Made by a program: the position numbers and the translations under genes. The notes under the pieces were generated by a model that saw nothing but the letters and a program-made list of their open reading frames with translations, had not been told where the DNA came from and ran no database searches. A stretch of 64,000 nt of DNA from Pseudomonadota bacterium (GTDB lineage: Bacteria > Pseudomonadota > Gammaproteobacteria > Poriferisulfidales > JAYYZZ01): the NCBI GenBank assembly GCA_036687665.1, contig JAYYZZ010000003.1:68129-132128 (forward strand), written 5' to 3'. Positions 1 through 56,425 of the stretch are shown here, piece by piece; the stretch's first letter is position 1; every line of letters begins with the position of its first letter.

Positions 1-1
1 T

Positions 2-124
2 AACAATAAACATAATGATTTGTTAGCCTATATCAATCGTTTATCAGATTTGCTGTTCGTGTATTGTAGAAAAATCGCAGCGGCAGATTTAGTGGAAGAG
101 AAATACTGGAATCCGTCTATTTAA
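2..124 (+). CDS. 3' end of ATP:cob(I)alamin adenosyltransferase (PduO-type), partial
   Basis: Open frame entering from the window edge, ending TAA at 122..124. Translation is ...LLAYINRLSDLLFVYCRKIAAADLVEEKYWNPSI*; the YINRLSDLLF block is typical of the C-terminal helix of PduO/MMAB-type adenosyltransferases. Only 40 codons are visible. Confidence 0.45.
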   Translation, partial: NNKHNDLLAYINRLSDLLFVYCRKIAAADLVEEKYWNPSI

Positions 125-892
125 TTTTCGTTGTTCCTATAATCACCTCTGCATCTAGAAGTTTCTTGAAAATTGTTCGCCCGCCTTCCACTATTGATTG
201 GTCATTTGTTTTTTTAAGTATTATGGCCATTTCTTTTAAAATTTCCTCACCTGTTTTCTTTTTCTCTTCATGTATTTTTTCTAGCAAAAGAGCAGAGTAG
301 AGATTTATTTCTACAAAATATACTTTTCCATCACTACGTCTATTCACTATAAGATTTGTTGGTTCTTTTTGTATTTCTTTTAAATCAAAATCTTTACTTA
401 TTTTGTGCACAGCGTAGTTGTAGCGTAATAATTTAGCTAATGGTGAAATAACAGGTATGCCGTTATATAAATCGCCGACAGGATCTATTTTGCTCATGTC
501 AACTTGTTCATTAGAGATTAATAATTCCAATTCTATATATTCATAGTGCGCAAGCTCTAATAAAAAGACGGGATCGTTTTCTTGGAATTTGTACTCATTT
601 TGCAAATAGCTTAGGAATTCCTTGGCAATGTTATAAAAAAAAGGGCTTTTGCAATTGTGAGAGGCGTAAAATAGTTTTATTTTCTTTTCCCATTCTATTG
701 GGGTATATAGGCTACGTAAGACAGGGTAAGTTTTATTAATAAAGCCACTTATATTTTTAAAAAAAAGTTTACGATAAATCTCAAGACGCCTCTCTTCGAC
801 TCCGCTAGGAGGCGGAACATTGTCAGGATCTCTTAAATGTGCAGAGAAAGCATGCTGTATATCTTGAAAATTTAAATTTTTTTTTTAGTCAT
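117..892 (-). CDS. DUF2063 RiPP-maturation partner (HvfC/BufC/MbnC-like); reading frame interrupted at an A10 tract near the 5' end
   Basis: The frame is open from 884 to the stop at 117 (255 codons). The N-terminal part reads KKNLNFQDIQHAFSAHLRDPDNVPPPSGVEERRLEIYRKLFF..., and the C-terminal part reads ...PVFLLELAHYEYIELEL.... Both fit the DUF2063 pattern. The first 93 codons contain no ATG, GTG or TTG; the ORF track only picks up a TTG at 605. An ATG at 892..890 overlaps the upstream stop (ATGA) but lies in another frame. One extra A in the A10 run (886..877) would join the two frames. Confidence 0.7.
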
Positions 893-1719
893 TGTTGTGC
901 TTGGGCTTGATACTTTTTTATTGTACTAACTTCAGTTAATAAATCTGTGATTGGCGGGAAATTAAAGTCTCTCTCTAGTAAAGTGGGAATAGGTCCAAAT
1001 TCTTTGTATGCGTGTTTAAGCAAATTCCAAACAGGTTCTATAACATTTGCCCCATGCGTATCGACGATAAGATCCGTATCTTCTTGTGAATGTCCAGCAA
1101 TATGCATGTACGCAATTTTGTCTCTTGGTAGTCCTTCTAAATAGTGCAAAGGGTCATATTTATGATTTATAGAGTTTACATAAACATTATTGATATCAAG
1201 AAGCAGCATACATCCTGATTCCTCAAGTATTCCATTCAAAAAATCTAGCTCACTGATTTCTTGACCGGGAGAGGCGTAATATGAAACGTTCTCTATTGCT
1301 ATTTTGCGTTCTAAAATATTTTGTGTGTCTTGAATCCTGGATGCTACATACTTAATGGCATCATTGGTAAATGGAATTGGCATCAAATCATACAGATGGC
1401 CTGCGTCTGAGCAGTAACTCAAGTGTTCTGTGTAAAAAGCAATATGATGTAAATCAAGAAATTTTTTTATTTTTTCAAGTAAAACATAATCTAATGGAGC
1501 TGGACTACCCAATGACAATGAAAGGCCATGAGTGACAAATGGAAATTTTTCTGTAAATGTATGTAAACGCTGCCCGATAGAACCGCCTACATCTATCCAG
1601 TTCTCTGGCGCTATTTCCATGAAATCTACATTTTTAGGTGTAGTGTTTTCCAAATCATCTATGATATCTCTGCGCAAGCCTAAGCCCGCGCCGCGTATAG
1701 CCGCTAAATTATTGCTCAT
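889..1719 (-). CDS. Multinuclear non-heme iron oxidase (MNIO, DUF692; MbnB/HvfB/BufB-like)
   Basis: 276 aa with the TIM-barrel DUF692 pattern: GLGLRRD...DFMEIAPENW, FPFVTHGLSLSLGS, YTEHLSY, IENVSYY, LLDINNVYVNS, YMHIAGH. Located 30 nt downstream of the Cys-repeat precursor gene and coupled to the DUF2063 gene. Confidence 0.85.
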   Translation of the reverse strand: MSNNLAAIRGAGLGLRRDIIDDLENTTPKNVDFMEIAPENWIDVGGSIGQRLHTFTEKFPFVTHGLSLSLGSPAPLDYVLLEKIKKFLDLHHIAFYTEHLSYCSDAGHLYDLMPIPFTNDAIKYVASRIQDTQNILERKIAIENVSYYASPGQEISELDFLNGILEESGCMLLLDINNVYVNSINHKYDPLHYLEGLPRDKIAYMHIAGHSQEDTDLIVDTHGANVIEPVWNLLKHAYKEFGPIPTLLERDFNFPPITDLLTEVSTIKKYQAQAQQ

Positions 1720-1749
1720 ACAATGGTTAAGACAGGATTGTAGCTAGTT

Positions 1750-2082
1750 TTAGTTGCCGCACGTGCCTTCGCCGCACTTACCTTCACCATCTTTACCTTC
1801 GCCGCACTTACCTTCGCCGCACTTACCTTCGCCGCACTTACCTTCATCATTTTTGTTTTCGCTAGCTTTAGCTCCGCCACAGCCGCACTTACCTTCATCA
1901 TGTTTTTCATCATGTGTTTTCTCATCTTTTTTCTTATGAGAGCCTGCGACCATATAGCCAGAAGATAGTTCCTTCATTGTAAAGGGGTCTTCATGGGCGT
2001 TTACTGCTTGAGAGGTTGTCATTGTTATCGCTACTGTACCTATAGCTATAGCGAGGGGTGTCAGTCTTTCTTTTTTTGCCAT
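1750..2082 (-). CDS. Secreted Cys-repeat RiPP precursor (EGKCG-repeat, HvfA/oxazolin-like)
   Basis: AGGAG lies 7 nt upstream of the ATG at 2082. The Sec signal peptide is MAKKERLTPLAIAIGTVAITMTTSQAVNA|HEDP. A His/Lys/Asp/Glu-rich spacer follows. The C-terminal core is EGKCGCGG...DEGKCGEGKCGEGKCGEGKDGEGKCGEGTCGN, with 7 Cys. The track ORF starts 18 nt earlier at 2100, but the SD favours 2082. Confidence 0.8.
   Translation of the reverse strand: MAKKERLTPLAIAIGTVAITMTTSQAVNAHEDPFTMKELSSGYMVAGSHKKKDEKTHDEKHDEGKCGCGGAKASENKNDEGKCGEGKCGEGKCGEGKDGEGKCGEGTCGN
1756..1845 (-). repeat. Six tandem 15-bp units encoding the EG(K/T)(C/D)G pentapeptides
   Basis: On the plus strand, GCCGCACTTACCTTC is exact at 1771, 1801, 1816 and 1831, with a fifth exact copy at 1882..1896. 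Variant units are at 1756 (EGTCG) and 1786 (EGKDG). Confidence 0.95.
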
Positions 2083-2149
2083 CACCAAATCTCCTAACAT
2101 TTTTAATGTAAATATTAAGTTATCAATATACTCTATTTTTTTTTGTTGT

Positions 2150-2782
2150 CTATAATGCTTTTTTCTTGTAAAGACAAATGTCCTTTAACAGACAATTTGG
2201 GCATTTTGGTGTCCTTGCACTGCAAATATAACGACCATGCAATATAAGCCAGTGATGTGCATTTTTTTTGAATTTCTCGGGAACATGCTTTAATAATTTT
2301 TTTTCTACGATAAGTACATTTTTTCCTGGGGCAAGACCCGTTCTATTACATACCCTAAAAATATGCGTATCGACAGCAATAGTTTTTTTGTTAAATGCCG
2401 TGTTTAAAACGACATTTGCAGTTTTTCTGCCTACCCCGGGTAAAGATTCAAGCTCGCTTCTTATTTCCGGAACTTCACCATTATGCTGCTTAACTAAAAT
2501 CCTACATGTTTTTATTATATTTTTAGCTTTTGTGTTATGAAGCCCTATGTTTTTAATATGTTCTTTAAGGCCTTTCTCTCCTAGATTTAAAATTTTTTCA
2601 GGTGTTATTGATTTAATAAATAGTTTTTTTGTTGCCTTATTAACACTAATGTCTGTAGCTTGCGCGGATAAAATAACTGCAATTAAGAGTTGAAATGGAT
2701 TTTTATATTTGAGTTCAGTTGTCGGGTTTGGGTTTTGTTTTTCAAGCCGAGAAAATAATTTATTTATATTTGCATTATTCAT
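2150..2782 (-). CDS. nth: Endonuclease III
   Basis: HhH-GPD motif [13 protein letters not shown] and a C-terminal 4Fe-4S Cys cluster [17 protein letters not shown]. Confidence 0.95.
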
Positions 2783-3198: not shown

Positions 3199-3543
3199 TT
3201 ATTTAACTTGCATTCCTGGTTGCGCACCGATGTCTGCTGTCAGTAAAAATATTCCTTCATCTTCAGTGCCAACAGCTAGCAGCATGCCTTCTGAGGTTCC
3301 AAATCTCATTTTTCTTGGTTTTAAATTTGCCACTACAATTATATGTCTCCCAATCAGATCTTTCAGTGGGTAGGATTTTTTTATGCCAGCGAGTATTTCT
3401 CGCATATTCTCACCCATGTCAACTGTCAAGCGCACTAGTTTATCTGCATCTTCGATTTCTTCCGCATTTACAATTTTAGCAACACGCAAATCAACTTTTG
3501 AAAAATATTCGAAATCTATCTCACTGTTTTTTTGATTATCCAT
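3199..3543 (-). CDS. MetRS C-terminal tRNA-binding domain (Trbp111/EMAP-like), encoded as a separate ORF
   Basis: The segment [31 protein letters not shown]...[21 protein letters not shown] aligns with the C-terminal domain of E. coli MetG. It is in the same frame as metG, 18 nt after its TAA. Confidence 0.85.
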
Positions 3544-3558
3544 ATACTGATTTTTACT

Positions 3559-5196
3559 TTAATTCGATATTATTTTTGCAACATTTTTTTTGTCTAACCT
3601 CTCAACGAGAGGGGTATATTCTTTAATTTTATGTTTCAAAAGAGGTTTTTCTATATCTGACCAATAAAGAGGTTCTGTTTGTAAAAAATTTTCTGTCGTC
3701 TTTGCAATGTTGGGCATTATAGGTTTTAGATATATTGTTAATACTCTAAACAGGTTAATACCCATTGAGCATACTGCCTGCACGTCTTTTTCTTTGCCTT
3801 CCAGTTTTGCTAATTTCCAAGGCTCCTTATCGTTAATGTATTGGTTAGCGCTATCTGCAAGTTTCATAATTTGTTTTATAGCAGCGGAATATTCTCTATC
3901 TTCAAAATATTTTGCGATTAAATCCTTGGTATTACAAAACTCATCAAAAAGAGGTTGGTTATCTATTTCCTCTGACAACTCTCCCTTAAAATCTTTATTT
4001 ATGAAGCTCGCACATCGGCTTGCGATATTTGCAAATTTTCCAACTAGATCACTATTAATGCGAGCGATAAAATCATCTAAGTTTAAATCAATATCCTCAA
4101 TGTCAGCCCCTAATTTTGCAGCAAAATAATAACGCAAGTATTCTGGTTCTAAATGTTTGATATACGTGCGTGCAGTTATATATGTACCTCGAGACTTTGA
4201 CATCTTTTTACCATTAATTGTTAAAAAGCCATGATAAAAAATATTTGTTGGTAGGCGATAGCCCGAACCTTCAAGCAATGCTGGCCAAAAAAGAGTGTGA
4301 AAATATGCAATATCTTTTCCTATGAAATGGTATAGCTCAGCTTCACTATTTTTTGCCCAATATTCATCAAAATTATATTTTTTGTTATTACAGAGGTTTA
4401 GAAATGAAGCAATATATCCAATAGGAGCATCAAACCAAACATAAAAGTATTTTCCTATTTCTCCTGGTATTTCAAAACCAAAATAAGGTTCATCGCGAGA
4501 AATGTCCCAGTCCCGCAATCCGCTATCAAACCATTCTTGCAGCTTATTTCGCATTTCAGTTTGTGTAATTTTATTATCCACAAAGTTCTTCAAAGATTTT
4601 TGAAAATTGTTCAATAAAAAGAAGTAATGTTCCGATTCTTTTGTAATTGGAGTTGCTCCTGTAAGGGTAGATCTGGGATCTTTTAAATCTGTTGGCGAAT
4701 AAGTTGCCCCGCACTCTTCACAGGCATCTCCATATTGATCGGAAGCGTTGCAATGTGGGCACTCACCTTTAATAAAACGATCTGGTAGAAACATTTCAGC
4801 TTTTTCATCATAAAATTGCGAGATTATTTTTTTTCTAATATGCCCAGCTGAGCTCAATGCCTCATATATATTATTCGAGATTGATTGATTTTCTTTACTA
4901 TGAGTCGAGTGATAATTATCAAATTCAATCAAAAAATCACTAAAATCTTTTTCATGCTCATCCTGTGTTTTTTTTATCAAATCTTCCGGGGTTATCGATT
5001 CTTGCTGAGCGCGCAGCATAATGGGTGTGCCATGAGCATCGTCAGCACACACATATAGGCAATGGTTTTTACAAGACTTCTGAAATCGAACCCATATATC
5101 AGTCTGTATGTACTCTACTAAATGGCCGAGGTGAATGGGCCCATTAGCGTATGGTAGGGCACTAGTTACCAATATCTTGCGTTTTAATGAAGCCAT
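3559..5196 (-). CDS. metG: Methionine--tRNA ligase, catalytic core
   Basis: HIGH-type motif PIHLGHL, KMSKS motif (KMSKSRG) and zinc knuckles CPHC...CEEC. The ATG at 5196 (MASLKRKILVTSALPYANG) is the likelier start; the track ORF begins at a TTG at 5220. Confidence 0.95.
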   Translation of the reverse strand: MASLKRKILVTSALPYANGPIHLGHLVEYIQTDIWVRFQKSCKNHCLYVCADDAHGTPIMLRAQQESITPEDLIKKTQDEHEKDFSDFLIEFDNYHSTHSKENQSISNNIYEALSSAGHIRKKIISQFYDEKAEMFLPDRFIKGECPHCNASDQYGDACEECGATYSPTDLKDPRSTLTGATPITKESEHYFFLLNNFQKSLKNFVDNKITQTEMRNKLQEWFDSGLRDWDISRDEPYFGFEIPGEIGKYFYVWFDAPIGYIASFLNLCNNKKYNFDEYWAKNSEAELYHFIGKDIAYFHTLFWPALLEGSGYRLPTNIFYHGFLTINGKKMSKSRGTYITARTYIKHLEPEYLRYYFAAKLGADIEDIDLNLDDFIARINSDLVGKFANIASRCASFINKDFKGELSEEIDNQPLFDEFCNTKDLIAKYFEDREYSAAIKQIMKLADSANQYINDKEPWKLAKLEGKEKDVQAVCSMGINLFRVLTIYLKPIMPNIAKTTENFLQTEPLYWSDIEKPLLKHKIKEYTPLVERLDKKNVAKIISN

Positions 5197-5299
5197 GTAT
5201 GTCTTATTGGGTATCTGCAATCCTCTCCTAGTATATAATAATCTAATATAAAACCATCTGTGTATGCGTAAAAATTTTAATCTTCAGTAGGTAGCTTCC

Positions 5300-31279: not shown

Positions 31280-31315
31280 CCAGAGTCCCTTGTGTCTGGT
31301 ATCTTTGCTCCCGGA

Positions 31316-31670
31316 GTTAACCGAACAGTCGCTGCATGTATGTGCAGAGGAAAGTCCGGGCTTCAATAGGGCAAGGTGCCAGGTAACACCTGGGAGGCGT
31401 GAGCCAACGGCAAGTGCCACAGAAAATATACCGCCTCATAGTTTTTAGCTCGAGCAAATATTATGCGGTAAGGGTGAAATGGTGTGGTAAGAGCACACCG
31501 CGTTGTTGGTAACAGCAATGGCAAGGTAAACCCCACCTGAAGCAAGACCAAATAGAGGGATAGATACATGTGGCCCACATGATCCCTGGGTAGGTCGCTA
31601 GAAGTTCATGGTGACATGAACTCAAGAGGAATGACTGTTCAAGACAGAACCCGGCTTATAGGTTAACTCC
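31316..31670 (+). ncRNA. rnpB: RNase P RNA, bacterial type A
   Basis: The P1 helix pairs GGAGTTAACC (31316) with GGTTAACTCC (31661..31670). Conserved blocks present: GAGGAAAGTCCGGGC, GGGTGCCAGGTAACACCTGGG, GGTAAGGGTGAAA, GTAAGAGCACACC and ACAGAACCCGGCTTA. Same position as in Pseudomonas, between rsmI and mraZ. Confidence 0.95.
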
Positions 31671-31852
31671 ACATTTTTATCCACTTTTTTCCACAACAGC
31701 ACAAGATTCCTATAATTTTCGTTGTTTTCTAGCAACAATTACACACATAAACTTAATGTAATTTATTAGGAATATACCCTAATAATCTGAATAAGAATGA
31801 TTGTTTAAATATATAAACATTATCTAAGTTATTGTGAAATAAAGGAAAAATC

Positions 31853-32402: not shown

Positions 32403-33341
32403 ATGGAGGGAACCATGTTGCGCCAACATACTTCGGTATTACTTAAGGAGTCCGTTAGTTCCTTGAATATAAAGAGGGATGGAATTTATGTCGACGCAAC
32501 GTTTGGGCGCGGAGGACATACTCAAGCCATACTAGAAAAGTTAGATTTGAACGGAAAGGTGATTGCATTTGACTGTGATCATGAGGCTAAAGATTTTGCA
32601 AAAGGGCATTTTGCACAAGATAAAAGATTTTTTTTTATTTCAAAACCTTTCTTATCCTTAAATCAATCTCTAGAGGAGATTGGTGCTAGTAAAAAAGTAG
32701 ATGGTGTCCTTTTAGATTTAGGTGTTTCTTCGCCGCAATTAGATAACCCAGAAAGAGGTTTTAGCTTTTTAGAAGACGGCCCCCTTGATATGCGCATGGA
32801 CACTAATGGCGGAGTAACCGCAGCTCAATGGCTATCGGATGCAAGCCCAGATGACATTAAGATGGTTCTAAAAGATTACGGAGAAGAAAGGTATTTTTCC
32901 CAAATATCAAACGCTATAATTAAGTTCCGTCAGACTGAGGCAATAAAGACTACCAAACAATTATCTGATCTTGTCTGCCGCGTTATTCCAAAAAAGGAAA
33001 GAAATAAACACCCGGCTACTCGCACCTTCCTTGCGATTCGTATCCACATAAATAACGAGCTAGATGCACTAACTAATGTACTCGAACAAACTTTGTCATG
33101 TTTAATTAAAGGAGGAAGGGTCGTAGTAATTAGTTTTCATTCATTAGAAGACAGGATTGTTAAAAGATTTTTCCGTCAATATAGTAAGCCTGAACCTACA
33201 TCTAAAAATTTACCACCCCCTTTGAAAGATTTTGTACCTCAGCTTGTTCAAGTTGGCAGCTTAACGAGGCCAACAGAAGAGGAGTGCGCAAGTAATCCGC
33301 GTGCTAGAAGCGCAAAAATGCGTGTTGCCGAAAAAATATGA
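32403..33341 (+). CDS. rsmH: 16S rRNA m4C1402 methyltransferase
   Basis: Motifs DATFGRGGH and DLGVSSPQLD. The start could be the ATG at 32415. Confidence 0.95.
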   Translation: MEGTMLRQHTSVLLKESVSSLNIKRDGIYVDATFGRGGHTQAILEKLDLNGKVIAFDCDHEAKDFAKGHFAQDKRFFFISKPFLSLNQSLEEIGASKKVDGVLLDLGVSSPQLDNPERGFSFLEDGPLDMRMDTNGGVTAAQWLSDASPDDIKMVLKDYGEERYFSQISNAIIKFRQTEAIKTTKQLSDLVCRVIPKKERNKHPATRTFLAIRIHINNELDALTNVLEQTLSCLIKGGRVVVISFHSLEDRIVKRFFRQYSKPEPTSKNLPPPLKDFVPQLVQVGSLTRPTEEECASNPRARSAKMRVAEKI

Positions 33342-51916: not shown

Positions 51917-54610
51917 ATGTTTTTATCAATGTTTAAAAAATTTTTTGGCAGCCGCAATGAGCGTTTATTAAAGCGTTATTCAGGTATTGTTTCTGAAATT
52001 AATAACTTAGAGCCAAAGTATTCAAGCCTCAGCGACGATTCATTAAAAGCACTAACATTAGAATTTAAAGATAGGTATCAGAAAGGAGAAACGCTAGAAG
52101 ATCTGTTGCCAGAAGCTTTTGCAGTAGTCAGAGAATCTGCTAAAAGGACACTAGATATGCGTCACTTTGATGTTCAATTAATTGGCGGCATAGTCCTTCA
52201 TGAAGGCAGGATTGCTGAAATGCGTACAGGTGAGGGTAAAACACTTGTCGCGACATTAGCAGCATACTTGAATGCCTTATCAGGAGACAGCGTACATATA
52301 ATCACTGTGAATGATTATTTAGCGACAAGAGATGCTGCCTGGATGGGAAAGATATACCAACATCTTGGGCTTGAAACAGGAGCCATTGTTTCAAACATGC
52401 AGTCAGAGAAAAAATTGTCTATATATCAAAAAGACATAGTATATGGAACAAATAATGAGTTCGGTTTTGATTATTTGCGTGACAATATGGCTTTCAGGCC
52501 AGAAGATAGATTCCAGAGAGACCTTGGTTTTGCAATAGTTGATGAGGTCGATTCCATCTTAATTGACGAGTCGCGCACACCGCTTATTATTTCTGGCCCT
52601 ACAGAGGAAAGTTCAGAGTTATATATTGCAATTAATAAACTTGTCTCAAAACTTAATGTACAAAAGGATGAAGATGGGCCAGGTGACTACAGCGTTGATG
52701 AAAAAACAAAACAAATACATTTGACTGAAGAAGGGCATCAGAGCGTTGAAGATTTATTAATAAACAGTGGTCTTATTGATTCTTCTGCAAGCCTTTATGA
52801 GGCTTCAAACATAAAGTTCCTGCATCATATTACTTCTGCATTGCGTGCCAATGTTTTATTCCAAAAAGATGTAGATTACATAGTCCAAGATGGGCAAATA
52901 ATTATTGTGGACGAGTTCACAGGGCGCACAATGCCCGGGAGACGTTGGGGTGATGGGTTGCATCAATCAATCGAAGCTAAAGAAAATGTGTCTATTGAAA
53001 ATGAAAATCAAACTCTAGCTTCCATAACATTCCAGAATTATTTTAGGCTATATAAAAAATTATCAGGTATGACGGGTACAGCAGACACTGAGGCTTATGA
53101 GTTCCAAGAAATTTATGGTCTTGAAGTTGCTGTTATTCCAACACACATGGAAATGATTCGTGATGATAAAGCAGACCTTGTTTATCTTACTATTAATGAA
53201 AAATTTAAAGCTATTGTCGAAGACATTAAAGAGTCTGTAAATAAAAGACAGCCAGTACTTGTAGGTACTGCATCGATAGAAGCATCCGAGCATTTATCAG
53301 CTTTATTGGAGAAATTAGGTATAGCTCATAGTGTTTTAAATGCAAAACATCATCAAAAAGAGTCAGAAATCATTTCAAACGCTGGCAGACCATCGACAGT
53401 AACAATTGCGACTAACATGGCTGGACGCGGTACTGATATTGTGTTGGGTGGGAATCTTGAGGCAGAGTTGTCTTCTCAAGAAGAAACTGAAGAGCAGGTA
53501 ATACAGAATATCAAAGATGACTGGCAAGAGAGGCACCAAAAAGTTGTAGATGCAGGTGGTTTACATGTCATAGGAACCGAGCGTCATGAATCTCGTAGAA
53601 TAGATAATCAATTAAGAGGTCGTTCTGGAAGACAGGGTGACCCTGGGAGTAGTCGGTTTTATGTGTCATTAGAAGATAACTTAATGCGTATATTTGCTTC
53701 AGAAAAGATGACATCATTAATGCAGAGAATAGGCATGGAGGAGGGAGACTCAATTGAGCATCCTTTAGTAACTAAAGCAATTAGTAATGCTCAACGTAAG
53801 GTTGAAGCACATAATTTTGATATAAGAAAACATTTGCTGGAATATGATGACGTTGCAAATGATCAGCGTAAGGTAGTGTACGAACAAAGAAAGGAAATTA
53901 TGGATGCTGATAATGTGCATGAGAATGTTACAAGCATGAAGGCGAGCGTCGTTGATATGATGATAAGTCAATATATCCCAGAAAATACTAACGCTCACGA
54001 ATGGGATATTGAGGGCTTGGAGAAAGACTTGGAAAGTAATTTTGGATTAAAAATTACTACAGGAGAGCTGCAAAAAATTGCAGAAAAAGATAACCCCGGC
54101 CTTCTTCAAAGCGTTATAGAACAGAATTTAGATGAGCTTTTTACCACAAAAGAAGAGGAAATCGGAAGTGAAAATATAAGGGGCATAGAAAAAGATCTAA
54201 TGCTGCAAGTATTAGATGCTCACTGGAAGGAACATTTGATTATGATGGAACATTTAAGGCAAGGGATTGGCTTGAGGAGTTACGCACAAAAGAACCCGAA
54301 ACAAGAATATAAAAAAGAGGCGTTCTCTTTGTTTCAAGAAATGCTAGATAGAATCAAACAAGATTTCGTAACTATTTTGGCAAAAATTGATTTATCTCCA
54401 AATGATATTAGCACTCAACCCGAAAAAGAACCAAGTGCGGAACTTGAGTACCATCATAAGGATGCTGAGGATACACTGCATCCTGATAAGACAGCAACCC
54501 AGCCTTCAGAAGAGAAAGCGCCGTATGTCAGAAAAAATAAAAAAATTGGCAGAAATGAGCCATGCTGGTGTGACTCAGGTAAGAAATACAAGCATTGTCA
54601 TGGCAAGTGA
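51917..54610 (+). CDS. secA: Preprotein translocase ATPase SecA
   Basis: 897 aa with the motifs MRTGEGKT and DEVDSILIDE and the C-terminal zinc site CWCDSGKKYKHCHG. Confidence 0.97.
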   Translation: MFLSMFKKFFGSRNERLLKRYSGIVSEINNLEPKYSSLSDDSLKALTLEFKDRYQKGETLEDLLPEAFAVVRESAKRTLDMRHFDVQLIGGIVLHEGRIAEMRTGEGKTLVATLAAYLNALSGDSVHIITVNDYLATRDAAWMGKIYQHLGLETGAIVSNMQSEKKLSIYQKDIVYGTNNEFGFDYLRDNMAFRPEDRFQRDLGFAIVDEVDSILIDESRTPLIISGPTEESSELYIAINKLVSKLNVQKDEDGPGDYSVDEKTKQIHLTEEGHQSVEDLLINSGLIDSSASLYEASNIKFLHHITSALRANVLFQKDVDYIVQDGQIIIVDEFTGRTMPGRRWGDGLHQSIEAKENVSIENENQTLASITFQNYFRLYKKLSGMTGTADTEAYEFQEIYGLEVAVIPTHMEMIRDDKADLVYLTINEKFKAIVEDIKESVNKRQPVLVGTASIEASEHLSALLEKLGIAHSVLNAKHHQKESEIISNAGRPSTVTIATNMAGRGTDIVLGGNLEAELSSQEETEEQVIQNIKDDWQERHQKVVDAGGLHVIGTERHESRRIDNQLRGRSGRQGDPGSSRFYVSLEDNLMRIFASEKMTSLMQRIGMEEGDSIEHPLVTKAISNAQRKVEAHNFDIRKHLLEYDDVANDQRKVVYEQRKEIMDADNVHENVTSMKASVVDMMISQYIPENTNAHEWDIEGLEKDLESNFGLKITTGELQKIAEKDNPGLLQSVIEQNLDELFTTKEEEIGSENIRGIEKDLMLQVLDAHWKEHLIMMEHLRQGIGLRSYAQKNPKQEYKKEAFSLFQEMLDRIKQDFVTILAKIDLSPNDISTQPEKEPSAELEYHHKDAEDTLHPDKTATQPSEEKAPYVRKNKKIGRNEPCWCDSGKKYKHCHGK

Positions 54611-55863: not shown

Positions 55864-56425
55864 GAGTCTTCCAGAAAAATATTTAATAACACCTGATCCA
55901 TATAATTATGGGGATTCATTTCTTTTGCAATTGGAAAAAAATGTTGAATCATATTATAAGTTCGTTTTACTAAGATCGAAGCATTTGAATCAATTAGAAT
56001 ACATATCATTATGTAAAGTTGTTATTAAAATATGCCACAAATACAATTCTCTAATATTATTAAACCAGATGCCTGAAACAGTCACAGAATTAGGGGCTGA
56101 TGGGATACACTTGAGTGCAAAAGATATGTTTTTATATAACACTAGAGCCTTGCCCGACAATCTTCTCGTCGGCGCTTCATGTCACTCTCAAGCAGAAATC
56201 TCTCAAGCAGAAAAAATATCTGCTGATTTTTCCGTATTATCTCCTATTCAATCTTCCACAAAAGGTGGTCACAGAGAAGTAATGGGATGGAAGGGCTTAT
56301 CTGAGCATTGCAGTAAAACGAAAATACCTATATATGCTCTTGGCGGGGTATCTTGTGATGATCTTGCTTTAGCAAAAAAAAATGGAGCTTATGGGGTTTC
56401 AGGTATTAGTAAGTTCTGGAAGTGA
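55844..56425 (+). CDS. Thiamine-phosphate synthase family protein (ThiE/TenI-like)
   Basis: TMP-TENI pattern: LRSKHL, ADGIHLS, GASCHS, ADF.VLSPI and IPIYALGG. It corresponds to the C-terminal half of the Pseudomonas MutT-ThiE fusion gene found after argJ. Confidence 0.7.
   Translation: MQNIVTKSLPEKYLITPDPYNYGDSFLLQLEKNVESYYKFVLLRSKHLNQLEYISLCKVVIKICHKYNSLILLNQMPETVTELGADGIHLSAKDMFLYNTRALPDNLLVGASCHSQAEISQAEKISADFSVLSPIQSSTKGGHREVMGWKGLSEHCSKTKIPIYALGGVSCDDLALAKKNGAYGVSGISKFWK

Follow-up and report, generated by a model that had tools for sequence, protein, structure and literature searches.

The closest described counterpart of the operon reported here is HvfABC of nontypeable Haemophilus influenzae (NTHI1441, 1443, 1444), in which the gene for the precursor of a ribosomally synthesised and post-translationally modified peptide (RiPP) is followed by the gene for a multinuclear non-heme iron oxidase (MNIO) and that for its DUF2063 partner. 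Haemophilus HvfA, 95 aa long, begins with a Sec signal peptide and carries three AEGKCGEGKCG repeats, and HvfB acting with HvfC modifies all six repeat cysteines, each losing 4 Da, to give a product named 'oxazolin' that binds copper (PMC11252979). In preprints of 2025-2026 the modification was reassigned from oxazolone/thioamide to 5-thiooxazole, as in the bufferins (bioRxiv 10.64898/2026.07.17.739211), which supersedes the oxazolone/thioamide chemistry of HvfBC given in an earlier note on this DNA; that note also called the modification chemistry unknown, whereas it is characterised at the level of the family. In a 64-kb stretch of the marine metagenomic contig JAYYZZ010000003.1 (the whole stretch is referred to below as the window) three tightly packed genes, hvfA, hvfB and hvfC, all on the minus strand within 117..2082, have the same order of precursor, MNIO and DUF2063 partner. 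Our data show that the partner gene, hvfC, is out of frame at a run of ten adenines (A10) directly after its start.

The likeness to Haemophilus HvfABC goes beyond gene order, as the precursor combines a Sec signal peptide with repeated EGKCG, the two maturases match HvfB and HvfC at equivalog level, and the site-3 motifs of the oxidase are conserved. The differences begin with the precursor. Whereas Haemophilus HvfA has three spaced AEGKCGEGKCG units and an N-terminal, disulfide-forming cysteine pair, the window HvfA has a contiguous array of five-residue repeats, one of them without cysteine (EGKDG), and in place of the N-terminal pair a CGCGG pair. The window lacks DoxX (HvfX), its hvfC is one nucleotide out of frame, and its precursor failed the HvfA equivalog model NF050188 (25.7 bits against a cut-off of 95), which makes it a member of the family and not an orthologue of Haemophilus HvfA.

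The Buf_EGKCG/oxazolin family comprises about 2,000 precursors of 31-506 aa, mostly from Pseudomonadota, and its clusters hold RiPP, MNIO, DUF2063 and DoxX genes 'in various combinations' (PMC12452194). The window operon lies inside this family, and its directly tandem pentapeptides are a minor variation. Our sample from species-representative genomes comprised the surroundings of the nearest HvfB relatives, 80 loci in all, 55 of which have a recognisable EGKCG-type precursor upstream. These precursors are 74-189 aa long with 3-12 cysteines, which puts the window precursor, with its 110 aa and 7 Cys, in the middle of both ranges, and seven of the 55 share with it at least three directly tandem pentapeptides. 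A DoxX gene is adjacent in at least 23 of the 80 loci, the rest being without one by the same screen, and PF07681 was confirmed for two representatives; the three-gene layout without DoxX is one normal configuration.

Bufferins (BufABC; Buf1/DUF2282, Buf2) are likewise made from a Sec-exported precursor by an MNIO and a DUF2063 partner, carry 5-thiooxazole and buffer periplasmic copper (PMC11626156). The window operon would share this logic, but its MNIO is below the BufB cut-off, its precursor has no Pfam match, DUF2282 included, and no sigma or anti-sigma genes adjoin it. We therefore rejected an assignment to a BufB-type MNIO with a DUF2282 or Buf_6/12Cys precursor (BufB model NF050167, 261.7 bits for the 889..1719 protein against a cut-off of 310), and equally a methanobactin (MbnABC) system (MbnB model TIGR04159, 39.7 against 325). 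As a system, the operon adds nothing new: the biochemistry of its family has been worked out, NCBIfam offers curated models for it, and surveys have covered thousands of genomes. The sole point worth following up is the species-specific A10 frameshift in an essential partner gene.

Family assignment and the hvfC frameshift

The gene hvfB (889..1719, minus strand) is intact and encodes an MNIO (DUF692) maturase of 276 aa. The protein scored 420.8 bits against a cut-off of 360 with NF003818, the NCBIfam model for HvfB family MNIO-type RiPP peptide maturases, and 341 bits with PF05114, and fell below the cut-offs of the ApyH and ChrH models. A structure search placed it nearest to PDB 3BWW (E 2e-73), an H. 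somni MNIO and the structure that has been used as the HvfB model (bioRxiv 10.64898/2026.07.17.739211). The motifs HGLSLSLG(64), TEHLS(97), IENVS(142), LDINN(174), HIAGH(206), VDTHG(219) and LERD(248) are all present, among them those that carry the metal-site residues, and two of these, LDINN(174) and VDTHG(219), align with the 3BWW regions that correspond to N175, D242 and H244 of site 3, a mapping made by sequence alignment only. These site-3 residues are essential for HvfB activity (bioRxiv 10.64898/2026.07.17.739211).

The body of hvfC (117..884, minus strand) consists of 255 open codons up to TAG 117..119 and encodes a DUF2063 N-domain and an NGO1945-type C-domain. Its frame scored 264.8 against a cut-off of 142 with NF050145, the NCBIfam model for HvfC family RiPP maturation proteins, covering profile positions 1-237 of 237, so that the match is full length despite the missing start. 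It also matches PF09836 (76 bits) and PF22106 (72.7 bits), and a structure search matched it to NGO1945 (3DEE). The residues that are invariant across 14 aligned HvfC sequences are also found in the window protein, by construction of the alignment. The precursor in turn passed NF050137, the NCBIfam HvfA-family KCGExKCG repeat model, with 33.3 bits against a cut-off of 19.5. With all three curated models passed, the sequence assigns the operon to the HvfABC-type (Buf_EGKCG/oxazolin) RiPP operons, a family already described and one in which neither the gene content nor the layout seen here is new. The earlier note had arrived at much the same place from the letters alone: its three co-oriented minus-strand genes between nth and the cobalamin adenosyltransferase gene, with the DUF692 gene 30 nt downstream of the precursor gene, are where it put them, the DUF692/MNIO and DUF2063 identities on which it staked its reading both hold, and its label of an oxazolin/bufferin-type metallophore system fits the curated models.

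The start codon of hvfC (ATG 890..892, minus strand) overlaps the hvfB stop codon (TGA 889..891) as ATGA, a translational-coupling arrangement, and the same ATG opens the intact hvfC of both sister species (257 and 258 aa). The overlap between the DUF2063 start and the DUF692 stop that the earlier note described is thus real, but the frame of this ATG differs from that of the 117..884 body. After ATG-ACT comes the A10 homopolymer (877..886, minus strand), where a length of A11 or A8 would keep the gene in frame. Translated as it stands, the frame opened by the ATG gives MTKKKI and ends at TAA 872..874, so that the shift lies three codons past the ATG and the product has 6 aa. The frame of the HvfC body, for its part, has a TAA at 885..887 and then no ATG, GTG or TTG until TTG 605, which we rejected as the start of hvfC because it would remove the whole DUF2063 N-domain. 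When one A is added to the tract, the reading becomes MTKKKNLNFQDIQHAFSA..., a full HvfC of 258 aa that is collinear with the sister-species protein (MTKKKNLNFQ...). An intact, translatable open reading frame (ORF) for the partner is missing from 9/9 contigs, and in its place stands a slippery homopolymer at which a shift of +1 nt, or a -1 ribosomal shift, restores the full ORF. In speaking of a 'frame-corrected partner' the earlier note had hinted at a frameshift and left the A10 lesion undescribed.

The annotation of the metagenome-assembled genome (MAG) at NCBI contains, in place of HvfC, only a 162-aa 'hypothetical protein' that starts at TTG 605 (MEG3592142.1; 117..605, minus strand). Gene callers thereby overlook both the DUF2063 N-domain and the frameshift, an annotation problem that leaves HvfC reported as nothing but a C-terminal fragment.

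The same A10 is found in the window and in eight contigs from separate assemblies and several samples (L001-L006, L089, L096), all at least 99.5% identical, the sources being the ENA LUOE20 and ZHAN22 sets, Logan DRR68387x runs, JGI 3300009104, ENA UPTF01 and the NCBI MAG. It is the longest homopolymer in the window. The only other runs of 9 or more there (2136..2144, 32628..32636 and 56374..56382) are one intergenic T9 and two 9-mers inside long ORFs, and on this ground we rejected a genome-wide habit of poly(A) frameshifts.

Using a protein database and exact-protein contig look-ups, we found two sister species that have the same gene order at 87-89% nucleotide identity, and in both of them hvfC is in frame. 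The first has ATGACT-A8-TTTAAT and an HvfC of 257 aa; the second has ATGACT-G-A10-TTTAAA and an HvfC of 258 aa (MTEKKNLNFQ), which is in frame in six contigs. Judged from this alignment, one nucleotide of an 11-nt stretch has gone in the window species. All three species have a long A run where hvfC begins, and the G+A10 gene of the second sister should also be prone to transcriptional slippage, which there would lower the yield (L090-L095; near 10000 in L090). Dating the frameshift from species-representative genomes was abandoned, as the best HvfB relatives among them are just 58-60% identical and so too distant.

Activity of the operon

In the Haemophilus system no product is formed in vitro without HvfC, the HvfBC complex forms solely on co-expression, and HvfC is needed for HvfB to attain its active mixed-valent state (bioRxiv 10.64898/2026.07.17.739211). 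As HvfC is required for HvfB and hvfC is out of frame, the output of the window operon hangs on slippage at A10, or else the system has recently been turned off. The earlier note had stated that the operon makes a modified, Cu-binding peptide; this is right for the family but not for this organism as it stands, with hvfC out of frame in every contig.

We are evenly divided on the reading that we nevertheless place first, in which the operon would run at a low, leaky level and full-length HvfC would arise only through slippage at A10. RNA polymerase would add one A at the tract and so produce an in-frame hvfC mRNA; alternatively, the ribosome would slip by -1 on A_AAA_AAA and produce the same HvfC protein. 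Insertion of a single A is the transcription error that predominates at A/T runs, and it becomes exponentially more frequent as the run grows longer (PMC5574713; spectra from E. coli and Buchnera). An A11 tract restores tssM1 of Citrobacter rodentium in about 20-25% of products (PMC4256274). By analogy, slippage at the A10 of hvfC is plausible. The likeness to tssM1 lies in a homopolymer of at least 10 A just before a premature stop, where insertion of a single A restores the frame. In contrast to slippage of the tssM1 type, the hvfC arrangement is not shared by the sister species, its tract lies at codons 3-6 and not mid-gene, and there is no second functional product.

The rates of change in hvfC are compatible with a gene that still has a use. 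Against the sister species, the ratio of non-synonymous to synonymous substitution rates (dN/dS) is 0.14 for hvfC, 0.12 for the startless part of hvfC and 0.06 for hvfB, and the polarised amino-acid changes fall evenly on both branches (about 9-11 versus 9), with no acceleration on the window branch. The even branch changes and the low dN/dS give no sign of relaxed selection on the window branch, in a population too near-clonal for this test to discriminate.

Several observations weigh against the slippage reading. As 2/2 sister species have the gene in frame, the out-of-frame state lacks conservation, and nothing points to a recoding signal under selection. A search for stimulatory RNA structure after the tract found none (fold z-score -0.35), and no Shine-Dalgarno-like stimulator was seen upstream of it. 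HvfC of the window species carries the replacement P161A at a proline that 12/12 outgroups share with the sister species. Of the changes found within the population, 4 non-synonymous and 2 synonymous ones fall in hvfC and 1 and 3 in hvfB; these counts are too small for a test, and those in hvfC hint at relaxation. Moreover, the population that carries A10 is near-clonal (at least 99.5% identity), so that the lesion is young and the absence of further decay tells little.

Recent outright inactivation is almost as likely as a leaky operon, though we rate it somewhat short of an even chance. Here hvfC would be a young pseudogene created by the loss of one base from a homopolymer, HvfB would be inactive, HvfA, if made, would be exported unmodified, and the operon would be heading for deletion in this species. 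The shift only three codons in, the 6-aa product, the fragment of 162 aa that is all NCBI calls, the excess of non-synonymous changes in hvfC within the population and the replaced proline all agree with such a loss, as does its confinement to one near-clonal, species-level population with both sisters intact, and HvfB cannot work without HvfC. Reversion from A10 to A11 should also arise easily, yet none of the nine contigs has A11, and a variable-gap DNA pattern scan of the metagenome collection returned neither A9 nor A11 alleles, its yield being one more A10 contig and one G+A10 contig of the sister species; the lack of an A11 revertant suggests little selection to restore hvfC. On the other hand, hvfA, hvfB and the body of hvfC are otherwise intact, with between-species dN/dS of 0.06-0.14 and no accelerated branch, and in other bacteria a run of ten A suffices for slippage to be measured (PMC4256274, PMC5574713), so that a total lack of HvfC is not guaranteed.

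A stronger form of the slippage reading, that A10 is a selected throttle by which obligatory slippage or -1 frameshifting keeps HvfC low or switches it between cells, seems to us unlikely. If true, it would amount to recoding-controlled RiPP maturation, in which the installation of thiooxazoles on HvfA is set via the first codons of hvfC.

Less likely still is a phase-variable switch, in which replication slippage would take hvfC back and forth between A10 (OFF) and A11 (ON) and a subpopulation would make the copper-binding peptide. Phase variation through homopolymer tracts is familiar from Haemophilus and Neisseria, two genera that also have Hvf-type loci, and these precedents, together with a homopolymer of 10-11 nt at the very 5' end of hvfC and a long A run kept in all three species (A8, A10, G+A10), are what could be expected of such a switch. 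However, the tract is A10 in 9/9 contigs from several samples, and the metagenome pattern scan returned no A9 or A11, with the limit that assemblies give the majority allele only and a minority of ON cells could go unseen. Least probable of all, and hardly credible, is an assembly or sequencing artefact that hides a true A11 and an intact hvfC: homopolymers are error-prone on some sequencing platforms, but the same A10 was obtained from several sources and samples (ENA, Logan, JGI, NCBI MAG), and the sister's G+A10, a tract of equal length, was assembled in frame six times, which indicates that A10 runs are not systematically mis-assembled.

With one species in which hvfC is out of frame at A10 and two sisters in which it is in frame, nature offers a comparison that could be used to find out what amount of HvfC is required by an MNIO system. 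It could also serve to test for the rescue of genes by poly(A) slippage in marine bacteria that are free-living and AT-rich.

The precursor and its proposed maturation

The precursor gene hvfA (1750..2082, minus strand; ATG 2080..2082, stop TAA 1750..1752) encodes 110 aa with 7 Cys, and each feature that the earlier note had listed for it was found, from the Shine-Dalgarno sequence and Sec signal peptide to the charged spacer and the EGKCG-repeat core. The Shine-Dalgarno sequence, AGGAG, is read at 2091..2095 (minus strand), 8 nt before the ATG. The N-terminus, MAKKERLTPLAIAIGTVAITMTTSQAVNA|HEDP, has the order of n-, h- and c-regions that is typical of a Sec signal peptide, and the predicted signal peptide (1996..2082, minus strand) spans residues 1-29, with MAKKER followed by a hydrophobic stretch and SQAVNA, and a putative cleavage site at VNA|HE. 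Sec signal peptides are a hallmark of the family (PMC11252979, PMC12452194).

The signal peptide is followed by a spacer rich in His, Lys, Asp and Glu. The motif DPFTMKELSSGYM at residues 32-44 (1951..1989, minus strand) is of the PF...L..GY type and is conserved in the sister species. A PF...L..GY motif stands right after the signal peptide in 39 of the 55 related precursors, and the window version of it is DPFTMKELSSGY. The core (1753..1896, minus strand; residues 63-110) reads EGKCGCGG, a short spacer, three contiguous copies of EGKCG, EGKDG, EGKCG, EGTCG and a final N, which gives six EG[KT]CG motifs.

The core is also the polymorphism hot spot of a population otherwise at least 99.5% identical. 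The variants include an indel of 15 nt (one pentapeptide), D79G, E75K, N78D and G96C, some of them near contig ends and possibly artefacts of repeat assembly. The precursors of the sister species have 103 or 108 aa and contain the Cys-less repeats EGKDG, EGKRG and EGKDA.

Following the Haemophilus scheme, HvfA would be made with its Sec signal peptide and be modified before export. In the cytoplasm, a heterodimer of HvfB, the MNIO with a mixed-valent di-iron cofactor, and HvfC, its DUF2063 partner, would use O2 to turn the Cys in every EGKCG-type motif into 5-thiooxazole, a product absorbing near 302 nm, each Cys losing 4 Da in the process. The likely docking site of HvfC is the DPFxMxxLSSGY segment right after the signal peptide, and we infer that the post-signal motif is the element by which HvfC recognises the precursor. 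Sec export and cleavage by signal peptidase after VNA would follow, and pairs of heterocycles could then bind Cu(I), either in the periplasm or outside the cell. With 7 Cys the capacity might be roughly three Cu per peptide.

Neighbouring genes and the host

Upstream of the operon and co-oriented with it is nth (HhH-GPD; 2150..2782), beyond which lie, also co-oriented, a 4Fe-4S ferredoxin gene and metG; these assignments use Pfam labels on a 99.98%-identical contig together with our own scan. Downstream, a cob(I)alamin adenosyltransferase gene (PF01923; about 1..124, plus strand) is convergent, its 3' end overlapping that of hvfC. The spacer between nth and hvfA contains a promoter-like TAGACA-16-TATATT (2125..2152, minus strand) with 10/12 matches, which is weak evidence for a promoter, as it was the one promoter-like site found 5' of hvfA in a scan whose regional site count was not above that of shuffled controls. 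A terminator scan at the operon found none. No DoxX, exporter or transporter, TonB receptor or regulator adjoins the operon, as the earlier note had said, and a tblastn search of the 64-kb window with DoxX seeds from the related loci was empty. There is also no second copy of hvfC, hvfB or DoxX able to complement, either in the window or in the extra flank of contig L001.

SecA of the window (51917..54610, plus strand) is no more than about 64% identical to any protein found beyond its own cluster, its named matches being to Gammaproteobacteria (Thiohalobacter, Thiohalophilus, Nitrosococcus). In 2-kb windows the GC content ranges over 32-42%, for the most part 36-40%, and all of the related contigs come from marine metagenomes. 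On these sequence characters the host is an uncultured, deep-branching, low-GC marine gammaproteobacterium. The work thus places the family in such an organism, in which the operon is syntenic across three related species.

The flank just outside the window (L001 12700..20831) carries genes for a formyltransferase (FTR), a methylene-tetrahydrofolate dehydrogenase/cyclohydrolase and a class-V aminotransferase (Aminotran_5), together with an HpcH/HpaI-family lyase and two succinyl-CoA-synthetase-like subunits (ATP-grasp_2/CoA-ligase). From these Pfam labels we infer the serine-cycle enzymes serine-glyoxylate aminotransferase, malyl-CoA lyase and malate thiokinase. The flank past the window has tetrahydromethanopterin (H4MPT) genes, and this one-carbon (C1) gene set near the operon suggests a C1-utilising host.

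Two further features of the window are unrelated to the operon. A bacterial RNase P class A RNA (RF00010, 337.6 bits) at 31313..31674 (plus strand) is the sole Rfam match in the window at the gathering threshold. The gene metG (3199..5220, minus strand) is interrupted by one in-frame TAA at 3559..3561, and five codons past it ATG 3543 opens an ORF of 114 aa in the same frame that encodes a tRNA-binding domain (PF01588, 95.7 bits). In E. coli this tRNA-binding domain is fused to the C-terminus of MetG. The same split into 545 and 114 aa is also called in the sister species (L090-L092), and it represents either a split that is old and conserved or a case of readthrough.

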